Of a DNA stretch of 64,000 nt, positions 11,561 through 64,000 are shown in pieces; the first letter of the stretch is position 1, and every line of letters begins with the position of its first letter. The stretch is from Patescibacteria group bacterium (lineage in GTDB: Bacteria > Patescibacteriota > Microgenomatia > Daviesbacterales > UBA10151), in the NCBI GenBank assembly GCA_023379125.1, contig JAMCSY010000010.1:913-64912 (forward strand), in the 5' to 3' direction. The notes beneath the pieces are model-generated. The model was not told where the DNA came from, ran no database searches, and saw nothing but the letters and a program-made list of their open reading frames with translations. The position numbers were made by a program, and so were the translations under genes.

Positions 11561-12640
11561 TTGATGAAAGCTATTATCCCAACAGGAGGAAGAGGCACGA
11601 GAATGCAGCCTCTAACATTCTCCGCCAATAAGCATTTTATTCCGGTTGCTAACAAACCGCTTATTTTTTATTCAATTGAAACTTTGGCCCAGGCAGGTCT
11701 TAGGGATTTTGCTATCACTTACAATCTAGGCTATCTAGATATGGTAAAACATTTTTTAGGTAATGGTAGCAAATGGGGTTTAAATTTTACTTATATTTTG
11801 CAAGAGAAACCGATTGGGCTTGCCAATATTGTACAGGTTTGTGCAAGTTACTTACGAGGAGAGAAGTTTGTACTTCATCTCGGAGATAGCATTTTTGTTG
11901 ATGGTATCAAAGCGATAGTAGAACAGTTTTTGCAAAGGAAACCTAATGGGTTAGTGACAATGATTAAACACCCGCAAAACAATAGAATGGGTGTTCCTTA
12001 TTTTGATAAAAAAGATAAATTAATCAAATATGTGGAAAAACCACCAAAACCACCTCATCAATATGCTGTTCCAGGCTTATATTTTGCCGATGCAAATTTT
12101 TTTAAATGTTTCCGTGGTAAAGATAAGATTAAACCCTCCCCCAGAGGTGAATATGAAATACCCAGTGCCTTTCAGTGGATGATTGATCATGAATTTTTAG
12201 TTGAAGTTATTGAATATCAGGGAAAATGGTTGGATCCCGGAAAGTTCGATGACTGGATTGAAGCAAACCAATATTTGCTAGATCGTTTTACTCAAACAAA
12301 TATAAAAGGGACTATTGATAAAAATTCACAGCTAGAAAATAGGGTGTCTTTAGATAAAAAAAGCCAAATAATCTCTTCCCAAATTAGAGGTCCTGTGCAA
12401 ATTGGAAAGAATGTCAAGATAGTTAATTCTTATATTGGTCCTTATACATCAATAAGTAATGGTTGTCAGATAATAGACAGTTCGATTGAGAATAGTGTCT
12501 TGATGGAAAATGTTAATGTTACAGACGTTAAACTAATTGATAACAGTTTAATCGGTAAAGATAGTGAAATTCATACTAACCATCAAGCTAAGAGGTCTCA
12601 CATATTTTTTGTTGGTGAAAAATCCCAGATAAGTTTGTAA
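11561..12640 (+). CDS. Sugar-1-phosphate nucleotidylyltransferase, long-form RmlA-like (glucose-1-P thymidylyl/uridylyltransferase family) with C-terminal left-handed beta-helix
   Basis: N-terminus MKAIIPTGGRGTRMQPLTFSANKHFIPVANKPLIFYSIETLAQAGLRDF aligns with RmlA MKGIILAGGSGTRLYPIT..K.LLPV.DKPMIYY. The C-terminal 100 aa carry hexapeptide repeats. Confidence 0.75.
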   Translation: MMKAIIPTGGRGTRMQPLTFSANKHFIPVANKPLIFYSIETLAQAGLRDFAITYNLGYLDMVKHFLGNGSKWGLNFTYILQEKPIGLANIVQVCASYLRGEKFVLHLGDSIFVDGIKAIVEQFLQRKPNGLVTMIKHPQNNRMGVPYFDKKDKLIKYVEKPPKPPHQYAVPGLYFADANFFKCFRGKDKIKPSPRGEYEIPSAFQWMIDHEFLVEVIEYQGKWLDPGKFDDWIEANQYLLDRFTQTNIKGTIDKNSQLENRVSLDKKSQIISSQIRGPVQIGKNVKIVNSYIGPYTSISNGCQIIDSSIENSVLMENVNVTDVKLIDNSLIGKDSEIHTNHQAKRSHIFFVGEKSQISL

Positions 12641-12722
12641 TCTCAGCTCTTGCACTATCTTGCAAAGTATGTTTATCATCTAACATTAAGTAGCTGCTAA
12701 CCAAAGGTTGTAAACTTCGTTT

Positions 12723-13739
12723 ATGAAAAAGAAAAAAGCTTTTATTACTGGTATAACTGGCCAAGATGGCTCGTATTTGACGGAATTACTTTTGGCAAAA
12801 GGATATTTAGTGGGAGGGTTGATTCGAAGAAATGCGGGTAATGATTTAGGCAATATTAAACATCTCAAAAGTGAGCTTAAGCTCTATCATGGTGATATGC
12901 ATTCTGCAGACTCAATATCTTTGGCCTTATCTGATTTCAAACCAGATGAAATTTATAATTTAGCCTCGCAATCCTCACCCCTAGCTTCTTTCACTGATCG
13001 CTTAGGGACCGTGATGGTAACAGGAGTGGGAGCGATGTTGGTTTTTGATAAAGCTAAGGAAATTGTCCCCAAAGCAAAAGTTTATCAAGCTTCAACCTCA
13101 GAAATGTTTGGTGCTCCAAAACAAATCCCTCAAAATGAAGATACGATCTTTAGTCCAGCTAATCCTTATGCTGTGGCTAAAGAGTTTGCTCATCGGATGG
13201 CAATTCTGGCTAGGCAGGATCATAAAAAAGCACAATTTATCTCTTGTGGTATTTTGTTCAATCATGAATCTCCTCGCCGAGGTTTGCAGTTTATAACTCG
13301 CAAAGTCTCAGTAGCTGTTGCTTGCATCAAAAATGGACTAAAAAATAGTCAGGTTCCTTTGAATGAAATAGGTCAACCAATTATTCAAAATGGCAAATTG
13401 CGCGTAGGCGATTTGTCTGCCCAAAGAGATTGGGGTTATGCTCCGGATTATGTGGAGGCAATGTGGCGAATTTTGCAACAAGATGAGCCTGATGATTTTG
13501 TGATTGCCACAGGTGAGGTTCATTCTGTCAAAGAACTTTGTCAAGAAGCTTTCGCAGTAGCAGGGTTAGATTGGAAAAAATATGTGATTACTGATAACCA
13601 CTTTGTCCCTCCAGTACAAACTGGGCCATTATGTGGTGACTATAGAAAAGCTAAAAAGATTATAGGTTGGGAGCCGAAGACAACCTTTAGCGATTTAGTT
13701 AAAATTATGGTCGAAGCAGATATAAAAAATTTCTCTTAA
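12723..13739 (+). CDS. gmd: GDP-mannose 4,6-dehydratase
   Basis: KKAFITGITGQDGSYLTELLLAKGY is the Gmd N-terminal Rossmann signature. YAVAKEFAH supplies the catalytic YxxxK. Confidence 0.85.
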   Translation: MKKKKAFITGITGQDGSYLTELLLAKGYLVGGLIRRNAGNDLGNIKHLKSELKLYHGDMHSADSISLALSDFKPDEIYNLASQSSPLASFTDRLGTVMVTGVGAMLVFDKAKEIVPKAKVYQASTSEMFGAPKQIPQNEDTIFSPANPYAVAKEFAHRMAILARQDHKKAQFISCGILFNHESPRRGLQFITRKVSVAVACIKNGLKNSQVPLNEIGQPIIQNGKLRVGDLSAQRDWGYAPDYVEAMWRILQQDEPDDFVIATGEVHSVKELCQEAFAVAGLDWKKYVITDNHFVPPVQTGPLCGDYRKAKKIIGWEPKTTFSDLVKIMVEADIKNFS

Positions 13740-13745
13740 TATAGA

Positions 13746-61692: not shown

Positions 61693-62072
61693 TTTTAGGT
61701 TTACAACTGATAGCTATTATTTTCGCTTTGATTATGATTTATCTTGCCTATGTACATTATTCTCGAGGTGAACTAAATGGCCTAGAAATTCTCTCTTGGA
61801 TGACTATTTGGATTTTAACGATTGTAATTGTAATTTTCCCAGACTTACTACGTACTTTTACTCAAACTTTTTCTATTTCGCGAGTCTTTGATATGATGGT
61901 GGTTGGTGGTTTTATTGTAACGATCACCTTAATTTATTTAGCTTATGTTAAAACTAATAGGATTGAAAACACGTTAGAAAAACTTATAAGAACGGAAGCT
62001 TTAGCAAAGATGAATTTGCCAGAAAGGAAACTGAGAAAAAATGTCCAGAAAAAGAAAGGTCATACTGCCTAA
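61674..62072 (+). CDS. Small 4-TM membrane protein (DUF2304-like GT2 partner)
   Basis: The 132-aa protein has four hydrophobic helices and a basic C-terminal tail. It is sandwiched between two GT2 genes. Confidence 0.45.
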   Translation: MENKTMILGLQLIAIIFALIMIYLAYVHYSRGELNGLEILSWMTIWILTIVIVIFPDLLRTFTQTFSISRVFDMMVVGGFIVTITLIYLAYVKTNRIENTLEKLIRTEALAKMNLPERKLRKNVQKKKGHTA

Positions 62073-62844
62073 GATATCTATTATAATCCCTTCCTATAAT
62101 AAATCAAAGTATTTAACATATACACTACAATCAATTATTGATCAGAAATATCCCAATTTAGAAGTTCTAATCCAAGATGGTGGTTCGACTGATGGTAGTG
62201 TAGAAATCATTAAAAAATTTGCCAAAAGTAATAGGAAGATTATTAAATGGGTTTCTAAAAAAGATGATGGACAAGTAAAGGCGATCAATCAAGGGTTAAG
62301 AAAGGCTAGTGGTGAAGTCGTCACTTTTATTAATGCCGACGATGTCTATAAACAAGATGCACTTTTAAGAGTCGGCCGTTATTTTCAATTAAACCCCAAT
62401 CAATTATGGTTAACTGGCTATGGGGATATTATTAATAATAGTTCTCAGCAAACAAATTTTTTAGTCACCAAATATAAAAATGCATTAATAGCTAAAAATC
62501 ACAAACTATTACTTTATATGGTTAATTATATTACCCAGCCGAGTACTTTCTGGAGAAGAAAAGTCCATAGGAAAATTGGTTATCTAACCGGTACAAAAAA
62601 CTACGTAATGGAATATGATTTTTGGCTCAAGCTTTGGGGTATGCAAAAGCCAGCGATAATTAAGAATTATTTAGCCAGTTTTCGCTTAACAAGCGATAAT
62701 ATATCGGCAACATCCTTTAATAGTTTGCTGAGGCTTGATTACCAAATTGCCGAGGATTATACCAATAATCCGGCTATACTTTTTCTTCATCGTATACATA
62801 ACCTCTCGCGAGTGGTTTTACTTAGATTATTAAAAAATGATTAA
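62041..62844 (+). CDS. GT2 glycosyltransferase
   Basis: [21 protein letters not shown]...DGGSTDGS. Confidence 0.7.
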
Positions 62845-63787
62845 TAATTTTTGGAAGAATAAAAAAATTGTAGTCACTGGTGGATCAGGCTTTTTAGGTA
62901 GCAATATAGTCAAACTGCTAATCAAGAAAAATCCTCGCGAGATAGTCGTTCCTAGATCAAAGACTGATGACTTACGTAAGTTAGCAGTTTGCCGTCGAGT
63001 TGTAAGAAATGCAGATATAATTATTCATGCTGCTGGATTGGTAGGGGGTATTGGTTTTAACAGGCAAAGGCCAGGTGAGCTGTTTTATGATAATTTGCTA
63101 ATGGGCATTCAGCTTATGGATGAGGCAAGGAAGGCAAATGTTGGAAAGTTTGTAGCAATTGGTACAATTTGTGCATACCCTAAATTTACAAAAATTCCTT
63201 TTTATGAAGATGATCTATGGGGCGGTTATCCTGAAGAAACAAATGCCCCCTATGGCTTAGCTAAAAAAATGCTTTTGGTACAATCCCAAGCCTATCGACA
63301 GCAATATGGTTTTAACAGTATTTATCTGTTGCCAGTTAATCTTTATGGACCAGGCGATAATTTTAACTCTAGTTCATCACACGTCATTCCTGCTTTAATT
63401 AAACGATTTATTCAAGCGAAAAATGATGGTAATTCTACAGTGGTGGTTTGGGGTACGGGTAGAGCTACCAGAGAGTTTCTTTACGTGGAGGATGCAGCTA
63501 AAGGGGTAATGATAGCAGCAGAAAAATATAACGAGGATGCTCCGGTGAATTTAGGGTCATCCTTTGAGATCTCAATAAAAGATTTAGCAGAGTTGATTAA
63601 ACAGTTAGTGGGTTATCGTGGGAAAATTACTTGGGATAAATCTCAGCCAGATGGACAGCCAAGGAGAAAGCTAGATACTAGACGTGCAGAAGAGAAATTT
63701 GGTTTTGTAGCGAAGACTCAATTTGAAGAAGGTCTCAAAAAAGAAATTGACTGGTATCTTAAAAACGAAAAAAATGGACACAAATAG
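62837..63787 (+). CDS. fcl: GDP-L-fucose synthase (GDP-4-keto-6-deoxymannose 3,5-epimerase/4-reductase)
   Basis: [14 protein letters not shown]...AAGLVGGI...[10 protein letters not shown]...[19 protein letters not shown] aligns along the whole length with E. coli Fcl. Confidence 0.85.
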
Positions 63788-64000
63788 ACTGTATCAATTA
63801 ATTAAGCAATTCTGGGCTGTGTTACTAATAGTTTTATCAACAATTCCAGCAATATTACCATTTTTCCAACCAGGTTTGTTTTCCACATTTGATGGTATGA
63901 CCTTAGTAGCTCGTAGTGCTTATTTTTATCAATCTTTAACTGATGGTAATGTTATTCCACGTTGGGCCGATGTTTTAACTTTTAACCTGGGGTCACCTGT
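63774..64000 (+). CDS. Family B putative GT-C membrane protein (divergent 5th member; N-terminal 75 aa only, continues beyond the window)
   Basis: [75 protein letters not shown] aligns with the DD..RI.EM...DGQIPCRWVPD N-terminal block of paralogs 1-4. Confidence 0.45.

Follow-up and report, generated by a model that had tools for sequence, protein, structure and literature searches.

The DNA considered here is a stretch of 64,000 nucleotides (the window) from a Patescibacteria group bacterium (GenBank assembly GCA_023379125.1, contig JAMCSY010000010.1, positions 913 to 64,912). The source organism has a small genome, as an earlier note on this DNA had supposed, and belongs to the Microgenomates group of the candidate phyla radiation (CPR). 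From position 11561 to the window end at 64000, the open reading frame (ORF) listing consists of tightly packed genes, mostly on the plus strand, many of which encode polytopic membrane proteins by hydropathy count. The earlier note, made from the letters alone, had described this region as a dense glycosylation locus rich in glycosyltransferases (GTs) of the membrane-bound GT-C type, and Pfam, NCBIfam and profile searches together with independent assemblies establish that such a locus is real. It encodes 19 GT-C-fold or GT-C-related membrane proteins in 52 kb: eight PMT_2-like proteins, u391, four PTPS_related/YfhO-like proteins (family B), two PIG-M-like proteins (family C), one PIG-V-like protein, two proteins of family D, and u473. 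If u328 is counted, there are 20 polytopic proteins, and the set spans at least six sequence families. By Pfam and NCBIfam, the locus also includes 11 GT2 enzymes, two GT4 enzymes, one Wzx flippase, one DUF2304 protein, and RmlA-long, Gmd-like and Fcl-like enzymes. At about 50 kb, it takes up about 5% of a genome of about 1 Mb, a size like that of the relatives CP066686.1 (1.08 Mb) and OY970314.1 (0.98 Mb).

The inventory of the earlier note needs some revision. Its two GT4 genes, its single Wzx flippase (Polysacc_synt_3, 174 bits) and its two members each of families C and D stand, but its roughly 13 GT2 genes become 11 (five of them DPM1/ArnC-like), its seven ArnT/PMT-like proteins become eight plus the truncated u391, and its five family B proteins become four. 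Its figure of at least 20 polytopic GT-C-like proteins holds with u328 included, although 19 are GT-C proteins and the families number at least six rather than five. The RmlA-like enzyme lies above its cutoff, whereas Gmd and Fcl, which fall below theirs for equivalogs, are retained only as Gmd-like and Fcl-like. Finally, the supposed single plus-strand block is mostly plus strand but is interrupted by six minus-strand genes (13746, 16767, 17464, 38169, 58535 and 59956) and by unrelated small genes between 13.7 and 17.4 kb.

GT-C membrane proteins of the locus

Eight proteins match PMT_2 or PMT in Pfam, and u391 is related to them:

17464..18612, minus strand: PMTx, short PMT_2-like GT-C of 382 residues with about 12 transmembrane (TM) segments (PMT_2 23.7 bits, sub-threshold; LA_3751/3752 family, E 3.5e-8; hhalign to PMT1 family, 94% probability)
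19340..20896, plus strand: PMT1, PMT/PMT_2-like GT-C (PMT_2 34.4 bits, PMT 26.9 bits; conserved D59 in first loop)
21671..23197, plus strand: PMT2, PMT_2-like GT-C (PMT_2 50.9 bits; conserved D38-E39)
40169..41344, plus strand: u391, truncated membrane protein related to PMTs and lacking the N-terminal DE loop (hhalign: PMT5 family 98.9%, PMT3 family 98.7%)
41345..43003, plus strand: PMT3, PMT/PMT_2-like GT-C (PMT_2 47.4 bits, PMT 45.1 bits; conserved D34-E35; Agl23-like, 55 bits)
47891..49600, plus strand: PMT4, PMT_2-like GT-C (PMT_2 26.9 bits; 30% identical to PMT3)
50354-52003, plus strand: PMT5, PMT_2-like GT-C (PMT_2 49.9 bits)
52000-53538, plus strand: PMT6, PMT_2-like GT-C (PMT_2 32.8 bits)
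53489-55144, plus strand: PMT7, PMT_2-like GT-C (PMT_2 57.8 bits), in tandem with PMT5 and PMT6

The eight PMT_2-like proteins have the features by which family GT39 is recognized, a DE motif in loop 1 and a PMT-type TM core, with D-E conserved in the PMT2, PMT3 and PMT5 families. A lumenal MIR domain, which in loop 5 is a mark of the eukaryotic PMTs, was found by Pfam in none of the eight, and they fit the broader bacterial PMT_2/ArnT-like group. Residues 63-383 of u391 align to PMT residues 93-422 in hhalign, and the u391-PMT3 pairing is always kept in the loci of relatives, even where the pair is inverted.

The remaining GT-C proteins outside family D, and two proteins associated with them, are as follows:

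23200-24915, plus strand: B1, PTPS_related (PF10131)/YfhO-like GT-C (PF10131 36.9 bits)
24881-26620, plus strand: B2, PTPS_related/YfhO-like GT-C (PF10131 46.4 bits)
26592-28298, plus strand: B3, PTPS_related/YfhO-like GT-C (PF10131 27.9 bits), in tandem with B1 and B2
28295..29563, plus strand: C1, PIG-M/GT87-like GT-C (29% identical to C2; family profile matches GPI mannosyltransferase 1)
29577..31274, plus strand: B4, PTPS_related/YfhO-like GT-C (PF10131 31.1 bits, PMT_2 24.4 bits, YfhO C-terminal match 19.4 bits)
36266..37519, plus strand: C2, PIG-M/GT87-like GT-C (GT87 21.8 bits, sub-threshold)
37506..38168, plus strand: u220, bitopic protein with an extracytoplasmic domain, between C2 and D2 (no Pfam or NCBIfam match)
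57221..58438, plus strand: PIG-V (Mannosyl_trans2)-like GT-C (PF04188 29.1 bits, above the 22.4 cutoff)
58535..59956, minus strand: u473, orphan GT-C (GT-C fold in the predicted model; D115 and D121 conserved)
59956..60942, minus strand: u328, split C-terminal module of u473, five TM segments plus an extracytoplasmic domain (aligns to residues 489-750 of the 781-residue protein P0130)

The family B paralogues share 30-36% identity and an invariant D39, and B1 aligns with PMT1 in hhalign at 97.3%. The family C profile (A3, built from window and orthologue sequences) matches the glycosylphosphatidylinositol (GPI) mannosyltransferase 1 (PIG-M/Gpi14) in the PDB at E 2.1e-13. This was the sole genuine match among the five profiles (A1, A2, A3, A4 and A6) run against PDB sequences; the best matches of A1, A2, A4 and A6 were spurious (e.g., homeobox, Sec61-gamma), and there was thus no genuine PDB match for family B (A6) or for u473 (A4).

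Neither Pfam (at E up to 10) nor NCBIfam (at E up to 0.1) gave anything usable for the orphan proteins, leaving u473 without a match and u328 and u220 without a family assignment. However u473 and u328, which are adjacent and overlap by one base, are joined elsewhere: P0130, retrieved as a homologue of u473 (32% identity over 90% of u473), fuses a u473-like and a u328-like part in that order. Because both align to parts of this single protein, the two genes appear to encode one split enzyme, and the sequences point to a GT-C enzyme that is split here and fused elsewhere. The suggestion that u328 is an initiating phosphoglycosyltransferase, prompted by its five TM segments and C-terminal domain, found no support, as u328 aligns to the C-terminal part of the fused u473-type protein. 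An orthologue of u220 lies beside D2 in 30 of the 51 related loci described below, and u220 is a possible accessory subunit.

All polytopic families of the locus combine a polytopic TM core with a long first extracytoplasmic loop, as the GT-C fold requires. Acidic residues in that loop are conserved in every GT-C family of the locus except u391: DE in PMT2, PMT3 and PMT5, D59 in PMT1, D39 in family B (DD in B3), H33-D35 in family C, D134 in family D, and D115 with D121 in u473. It could be argued that the GT-C density is an annotation illusion and that transporters, scaffolds or degenerate copies make up much of the polytopic set, given that some Pfam scores are near or below threshold (17464, 23.7 bits; 36266, 21.8 bits; 47891, 26.9 bits), that u391 has no N-terminal catalytic loop, and that u220 and u328 lack a family. 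This is scarcely credible when profile searches tie families B and C, u391 and PMTx to GT-C families, the acidic residues of the catalytic loop are invariant, and all ORFs are intact and conserved. The polytopic families that the earlier note had left for testing by profile and structure searches all proved to be GT-C, none of them transporters.

The locus is reproduced by independent Logan assemblies with complete genes at 98-100% protein identity (91% for one gene cut at the locus edge). Because these assemblies match and the arrangement recurs in dozens of genomes, the locus is not an assembly artefact.

Family D

Two of the GT-C proteins belong to a family that has no Pfam entry:

32785..36255, plus strand: D1, 1156 residues, with a signal peptide, a DUF3863-like extracytoplasmic domain (residues 1-490) and a family D GT-C resembling oligosaccharyltransferases (OSTs; residues 496-1155)
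38169..40139, minus strand: D2, 656 residues, OST/DPY19-like GT-C with an AglB-type C-terminal globular domain

D2 is 32% identical to the C-terminal 660 residues of D1, and hhalign pairs the two at 100% over D1 residues 496-1155. The predicted family D model (predicted local distance difference test score, pLDDT, 90) is closest to the protein-glycosylating GT-Cs (STT3, AglB, PglB and DPY19). The best 17 Foldseek matches of this model are all DPY19 or OSTs (E 2e-9 to 1e-5). In another ranking of its matches, ALG12, AglB (17.3), PglB (16.9), PMTs, AftA and ArnT come after the closest ones. In the model the C-terminal domain matches the AglB globular domain, giving the OST-type arrangement of a TM core followed by a globular domain. 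As modelled, family D has the architecture of the protein-glycosylating GT-Cs, resembles OSTs and DPY19 more closely than the mycobacterial Emb and Aft enzymes, and may work like an OST. D2 contains a stretch, IWDWFDTSY (W562, W564, D566), that recalls the WWDYG motif of OSTs and is invariant in close members only; as a defining feature of the family, the IWDWFD motif was rejected, since distant members and D1 do not keep it.

Homologues of D2 number in the hundreds at about 50% identity and come from Daviesbacteria, Woesebacteria or Microgenomates where a source is named. In an exhaustive profile search of representatives clustered at 50% identity, family D comprised 1,827 representatives at E up to 0.001 and 906 at E up to 1e-30, in size forms of about 560, 650 and 1,015-1,160 residues. 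Members of family D and u473 bear the automatic UniProt name [quoted passage not shown]; in NCBI they are labelled hypothetical.

The first 490 residues of D1 (32785-34269) form a highly conserved secreted domain (profile A5). The domain is also found by itself in Microgenomates proteins of about 675 residues, many of them with PF12979 (DUF3863). Among the matches listed, at least 26 of 120 homologues of this domain carry PF12979. The domain weakly matches the DUF3863 structure 3lm3 (E 0.096), which we take to have been deposited as a putative glycoside hydrolase/deacetylase and which serves as a lead only. In several relatives, ORFs of 730-870 residues near the locus match no window protein.

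Cytoplasmic glycosyltransferases, flippase and sugar-nucleotide enzymes

The GT-C genes are interspersed with genes for sugar activation, cytoplasmic glycosyl transfer and lipid-carrier transport:

11561..12640, plus strand: RmlA-long type sugar-1-phosphate nucleotidyltransferase with an LbH tail (Pfam NTP_transferase 128.6 bits; NCBIfam TIGR01208 rmlA_long 343.9 bits, above the 320.25 cutoff)
12723..13739, plus strand: GDP-mannose 4,6-dehydratase-like protein (Gmd; PF16363 309.6 bits; TIGR01472 gmd 298.7 bits, below the 415 cutoff)
14542..15735, plus strand: GT2 fused to a GtrA/DPMS TM domain, candidate polyprenyl phosphate (polyprenyl-P)-sugar synthase with a flippase-like tail (PF00535 80.9 bits, PF04138 73 bits; best NCBIfam matches AglJ and ArnC)
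18673..19374, plus strand: GT2a, polyprenyl-P-sugar-synthase-like (PF00535 113.7 bits; ArnC-like 75.8 bits, dolichyl-P-hexose transferase 65.8 bits)
20932..21702, plus strand: GT2b, polyprenyl-P-sugar-synthase-like (PF00535 81.8 bits; best matches PgfS, ArnC and dolichyl-P-hexose transferase)
31286..32788, plus strand: Wzx/MOP flippase (MOP flippase family protein, E 3.7e-40)
43211-44122, plus strand: GT2c (PF00535), cytoplasmic glycan-building block 43211..47642
44067-44966, plus strand: GT2d (PF00535), same block
44963-45769, plus strand: GT2e (PF00535), same block
45769-46845, plus strand: GT4a (PF00534), same block
46842-47642, plus strand: GT2f (PF00535), same block
49602..50339, plus strand: GT2g, polyprenyl-P-sugar-synthase-like (PF00535 67 bits; best matches AglJ and PpgS)
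55150-56013, plus strand: GT2h (PF00535 60.8 bits)
56010-57077, plus strand: GT4b (PF00534 82.7 bits)
61033-61692, plus strand: GT2i, PpgS-like (polyprenyl-P-aminosugar synthase-like; PF00535 91.9 bits; PpgS E 2e-36)
61674-62072, plus strand: DUF2304 small membrane protein (PF10066 60.5 bits)
62041-62844, plus strand: GT2j (PF00535 107.8 bits)
62837..63787, plus strand: GDP-L-fucose synthase-like epimerase/reductase (Fcl-like; PF01370 175 bits; NF047922 282 bits, below the 500 cutoff)

The best NCBIfam matches divide the 11 GT2 enzymes into five that resemble donor synthases (14542, 18673, 20932, 49602 and 61033; ArnC, AglJ, dolichyl-P-hexose transferase, PgfS and PpgS) and six of chain type (43211, 44067, 44963, 46842, 55150 and 62041; rhamnosyltransferase, SunS, MftF or TuaG type). 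Those of the 43211-47642 block match rhamnosyltransferase, SunS and MftF types best, not polyprenyl-P synthases. Synthase-like GT2 genes directly adjoin GT-C genes, as in the pairs 18673/19340, 20932/21671 and 49602/50354. With the GtrA_DPMS_TM domain (73 bits) fused at 14542, the five synthase-like GT2s beside GT-C genes make up the gene set of a three-component glycosylation system, the activity itself being predicted.

Conservation among Microgenomates

A scan of one genome per species yielded 149 stretches encoding family D relatives, essentially all of them from Microgenomates (including Daviesbacteria, Woesebacteria and Shapirobacteria). The locus is also carried by many records with the title “uncultured Gammaproteobacteria bacterium” (L005, L007-L009, L011 and others, with accessions beginning CAY or CAZ), which seem to be placeholder or mistaken titles. 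The 10 kb flanking the family D gene on either side were annotated against the window proteins, and 51 species-level Microgenomates loci had full flanks. In these, family D was accompanied by PMT-like proteins in 50, family B in 48 and family C in 44 loci (family D itself, 51/51), with a median of 10 GT-C ORFs per 22 kb around the family D gene. Two gene orders are kept (parentheses mark genes that come and go):

B1-B2-B3-(C1)-(B4)-Wzx-D1-C2-u220-[D2 opposite strand]-(u391-PMT3)-GT2c-(d)-e-GT4a-(f)
PMT5-PMT6-PMT7-GT2h-GT4b-PIG-V

One-to-one orthologues are mostly 42-62% identical (PMT5-7, B1-B3, C2), as against 25-36% between paralogues within the window. Presence varies between genomes for C1, B4, u391-PMT3 and GT2d/f. 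Distant Microgenomates (L070-L078) have a compact form, GT2a-PMT1-GT2b-PMT2-B1-Wzx-D1-GT2c-d-e-GT4a, which looks like an ancestral core that was later expanded through duplication. Because gene order is conserved with one-to-one orthologues across relatives, the locus is an ancient class-wide core feature and not an acquired or variable island. The synteny check proposed in the earlier note was thus borne out among the 51 loci, with order and orthologues kept, and its term “island” is misleading for a syntenic core of ancient one-to-one orthologues.

This conservation also bears on whether the locus is a collection of independent three-component modules, each with a GT2 synthase, a small flippase and a GT-C (like gtr or CsbB/GtcA/YfhO), that decorate several different polymers with variable side-branches and so serve antigenic variation or phage evasion, the paralogues being redundant. 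The three GT2-GT-C pairs, the GtrA domain, the YfhO relationship of family B and the copy-number differences between genomes (C1, B4, u391-PMT3, GT2d/f) would suit such a collection, and systems of this kind are well described in Gram-positive bacteria (PMC8035078, PMC5836110). Yet the paralogues are ancient, each with its own orthologue (45-60% identity) in a fixed order across Daviesbacteria- and Woesebacteria-type genomes, which is the opposite of diversifying cassettes; only about five donor synthases face about 18 transferases, and no phage or mobile-element genes were seen. A set of independent modules is therefore quite unlikely.

The glycosylation cluster runs on beyond base 64000 (L079, positions 1-6183), where a 573-residue protein without a Pfam match, a 492-residue PMT_2-like protein, two GT4s and a DegT-type aminotransferase are added.

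Proposed assembly and product

Uncultured Microgenomates probably build a complex surface glycan. With moderate confidence, the locus can be regarded as the conserved core machinery for one complex, structurally fixed surface glycoconjugate whose assembly takes place largely at the outer side of the cytoplasmic membrane. Since every paralogue has persisted throughout the class as an orthologue of its own, the enzymes are non-redundant, and the product is conserved rather than strain-variable.

Family and fold suggest how assembly might proceed. RmlA-long, Gmd and the Fcl-like enzyme would provide sugars activated with dTDP and GDP, among them a 6-deoxyhexose such as fucose. GT2c-f, GT4a, GT2h, GT4b and GT2j would then assemble a lipid-carried oligosaccharide in the cytoplasm, to be flipped by Wzx. 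The five DPM1/ArnC/PpgS-like GT2s, one fused to GtrA and one paired with DUF2304, would charge polyprenyl phosphate with single sugars. From such polyprenyl-P donors, about 16 GT-Cs (PMT_2-, YfhO/PTPS-, PIG-M- and PIG-V-like, and u473 with u328) would each form one defined linkage outside the cell; their use of lipid-phosphate-linked donors is suggested by the adjacent DPM1/ArnC/PpgS-like GT2 genes. In a last step, the two OST/DPY19-like family D enzymes would transfer the product to the final acceptor, with D1 contributing its DUF3863-like and possibly glycan-editing domain; on the evidence of the model, D1 and D2 are the best candidates for this transfer.

Wzx-type flippases move oligosaccharides linked to lipid diphosphate (lipid-PP), and polyprenyl-P-monosaccharide donors are normally handled by GtrA-type proteins. 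Since the two serve different donors, two donor streams are implied rather than one. The first would be the lipid-PP-linked oligosaccharide, made inside by the chain-type GT2/GT4 block and flipped out by Wzx; the second would consist of the polyprenyl-P-monosaccharides made by the five synthase-like GT2s and consumed outside by the many GT-Cs, much as happens in Gram-positive three-component systems (PMC8035078, PMC5836110), in the assembly of the mycobacterial wall and in the endoplasmic reticulum. The scheme of GT2-made donors, flippase and outer-face GT-Cs in the earlier note thus holds at the level of family and fold, though not its single stream of donors moved by Wzx.

The acceptor is most likely a secreted or membrane-anchored protein (e.g., an S-layer protein, a pilin, or a surface protein rich in proline, serine and threonine, P/S/T). 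Three P/S/T-rich proteins beside the locus, on its upstream side, look like candidate acceptors for O-glycosylation:

2068-3303, plus strand: candidate acceptor, P/S/T-rich membrane protein without a Pfam match
3736-4977, minus strand: candidate acceptor, surface protein without a Pfam match, with a signal peptide, two repeated domains of about 150 residues, TPTPSPSPTPT-type linkers and a C-terminal anchor
7894-8334, minus strand: surface or membrane protein without a Pfam match, with long P/S/T-rich stretches, adjoining the locus

Several observations weigh against a surface glycoconjugate assembled in this way. At the sequence level, family D matches none of STT3, AglB and PglB in Pfam, NCBIfam or the PDB-sequence profile searches (A1, full length; A2, C-terminal domain), and its WWDYG-like stretch becomes IYAWYDTGY or LYLYESTAY in distant members and D1, so that the WWDYG motif is not kept. 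Because the stretch is invariant only in close members and no profile reaches OSTs by sequence, family D is not filed in GT66. Every GT2 and GT4 match is far below its NCBIfam equivalog cutoff, and the donor sugars are therefore guesses. Pfam and NCBIfam scans of the window ORFs of at least 100 residues found no initiating phosphoglycosyltransferase and no Wzy polymerase (no Bac_transf, Glycos_transf_4, Wzy or Wzz match), genes that could lie elsewhere in the genome; the start of the Wzx-dependent branch is thus missing here. Finally, enzymes of the PIG-M-like and PIG-V-like kinds are associated more typically with glycolipid anchors than with protein glycans.

These enzymes, together with the PpgS-like GT2i, keep a lipoglycan or wall polysaccharide alive as an alternative product. 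The same machinery might make a lipoglycan or a peptidoglycan-linked wall polysaccharide instead of a glycoprotein, comparable to the mycobacterial phosphatidylinositol mannosides (PIM), lipomannan (LM) and lipoarabinomannan (LAM) or to arabinogalactan. The GT4s would then prime a lipid or linker, the PIG-M- and PIG-V-like enzymes would extend a glycolipid core, and the PMT-like, B and D enzymes would act processively or in branching, like AftA, AftD and Emb. This is a serious possibility, though a doubtful one. In its favour are the family C match to GPI mannosyltransferase 1 (E 2e-13) with a weak match to GT87 (the PimE family), the 57221 protein above the PIG-V threshold of Pfam, and the position of GT2i next to DUF2304, presumably the arrangement found beside mycobacterial ppgS. 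The number of GT-Cs also resembles the mycobacterial wall repertoire. Against it, Pfam scans of the window revealed no decaprenyl-phosphoarabinose (DPA) pathway and no Emb-type or galactan genes, and CPR bacteria, to our knowledge, lack lipid biosynthesis. Also in its favour, a published Microgenomates genome paper ascribes the 29 glycosyltransferase genes it counts to cell-wall biosynthesis (PMC7143001).

Comparison with known systems

The mycobacterial and corynebacterial assembly of PIM, LM, LAM and arabinogalactan (PimE, Emb, Aft, PpgS/Rv3779) resembles the locus in having many GT-Cs that draw on few polyprenyl-P-sugar donors outside the cell (here presumed), as well as a PpgS-like GT2 beside DUF2304, GT87/PIG-M-like enzymes and GT4 primers. 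Unlike those systems, the locus includes no DPA pathway and no Emb/Aft sequence family, and it belongs to a genome of about 1 Mb. Mycobacterial wall GT-C genes are scattered around the genome, whereas here they lie in a single contiguous locus. The mycobacterial-like logic put forward in the earlier note is thus upheld by the synthase-like GT2s beside GT-Cs, the GtrA fusion and Wzx, but not by family D, which is nearer to OST/DPY19 than to Emb/Aft.

That resemblance shifts the closest analogy to the archaeal agl/AglB pathway and the ALG/OST pathway of the eukaryotic endoplasmic reticulum (ER), in which a glycan assembled on a lipid is transferred en bloc. Both share with the locus the polyprenyl- or dolichyl-P-sugar synthase GT2s (AglJ and dolichyl-P-hexose transferase are among the best matches), a flippase, several GT-Cs that would add sugars on the outer or lumenal face, and, in the model, an STT3/AglB-like GT-C with an AglB-type C-terminal domain; PMT3 adds an Agl23-like match. 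The locus differs in its bacterial host, in the lack of sequence-level STT3/AglB membership and of a conserved WWDYG, in having far more GT-C paralogues than any archaeal agl cluster, and in the extra DUF3863-like domain of D1. A stronger claim is that family D is an unrecognised bacterial branch of protein-glycosylating GT-Cs at the heart of an ER-like assembly line common to the class, in which about 16 GT-Cs at the outer face would remodel the flipped oligosaccharide before its en-bloc transfer to surface proteins. If so, it would be a third independent large-scale protein glycosylation system in prokaryotes beside Campylobacter pgl and archaeal agl, taking up about 5% of the genome. This is, for now, rather unlikely.

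Like the three-component systems (GtrA/GtrB/Gtr*; CsbB/GtcA/YfhO), the locus has GT2 synthases beside GT-Cs, a GtrA domain and the YfhO-related family B. In those systems one GT-C adds one side-branch sugar to an existing polymer (PMC8035078, PMC5836110); about 19 GT-Cs with Wzx and cytoplasmic chain-building GTs here form a conserved super-locus. Wzx/Wzy loci for O-antigen or capsule likewise have Wzx, sugar-nucleotide genes and cytoplasmic GT2 and GT4 enzymes, but no Wzy, Wzz or initiating transferase was found in the window, the GT-C density of the locus is far higher, and the locus is conserved in its class rather than hypervariable.

All parts of the locus fall in known superfamilies, and its general logic is known. 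What appears new is the scale (about 19 GT-Cs in 52 kb of a genome of about 1 Mb), the class-wide synteny, and the OST-like, Pfam-less family D with its DUF3863 fusion. The literature searched on CPR and Microgenomates glycosyltransferases yielded no description of the locus or of family D, and likewise nothing specific on DUF3863; one Microgenomates genome paper merely remarks on “29 genes of glycosyl transferases” (PMC7143001).

Significance for CPR biology

In the prevailing view, CPR bacteria are reduced episymbionts, and it is their surface that touches the host. The commitment of about 5% of the genome to outer-face glycosyltransferases suggests that Microgenomates invest heavily in one elaborate surface glycoconjugate, which would be a leading candidate for a role in host recognition, attachment, phage resistance or envelope integrity. 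The locus also supplies deeply conserved GT-C families that are poorly annotated or not annotated at all (family D, u473 and the PIG-M-like family C). As an OST-like family without the canonical motif, family D bears on the evolution of oligosaccharyltransferases. For heterologous expression, and for glycoproteomics of enrichments, the locus offers definite targets.

Neighbouring genes and sequence composition

Unrelated small genes sit between Gmd and the first GT-C genes (13746-17396). Three of them are ORFs without a family match, and two have recognizable domains:

14122-14475: tRNA_bind domain protein, unrelated small gene
16205-16660: NTPase_I-T/DUF84 protein, unrelated small gene

Upstream of the locus, a housekeeping block on the minus strand (4962-9454) encodes an M23 peptidase with a PcsB-like coiled coil, FtsX and a class-I release factor, and a 239-residue ORF adjoins (7117-7836). 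Scans of the window for tRNAs and Rfam families found nothing. A scan of 37.5-48.5 kb for promoters and terminators did no better than on shuffled sequence, which leaves gene spacing as the sole guide to transcription units. The tandem GT-C genes (22000-32000) show a strongly negative AT skew (-0.15 to -0.21), probably owing to T-rich codons for hydrophobic residues. The cumulative GC skew climbs steadily along the window.

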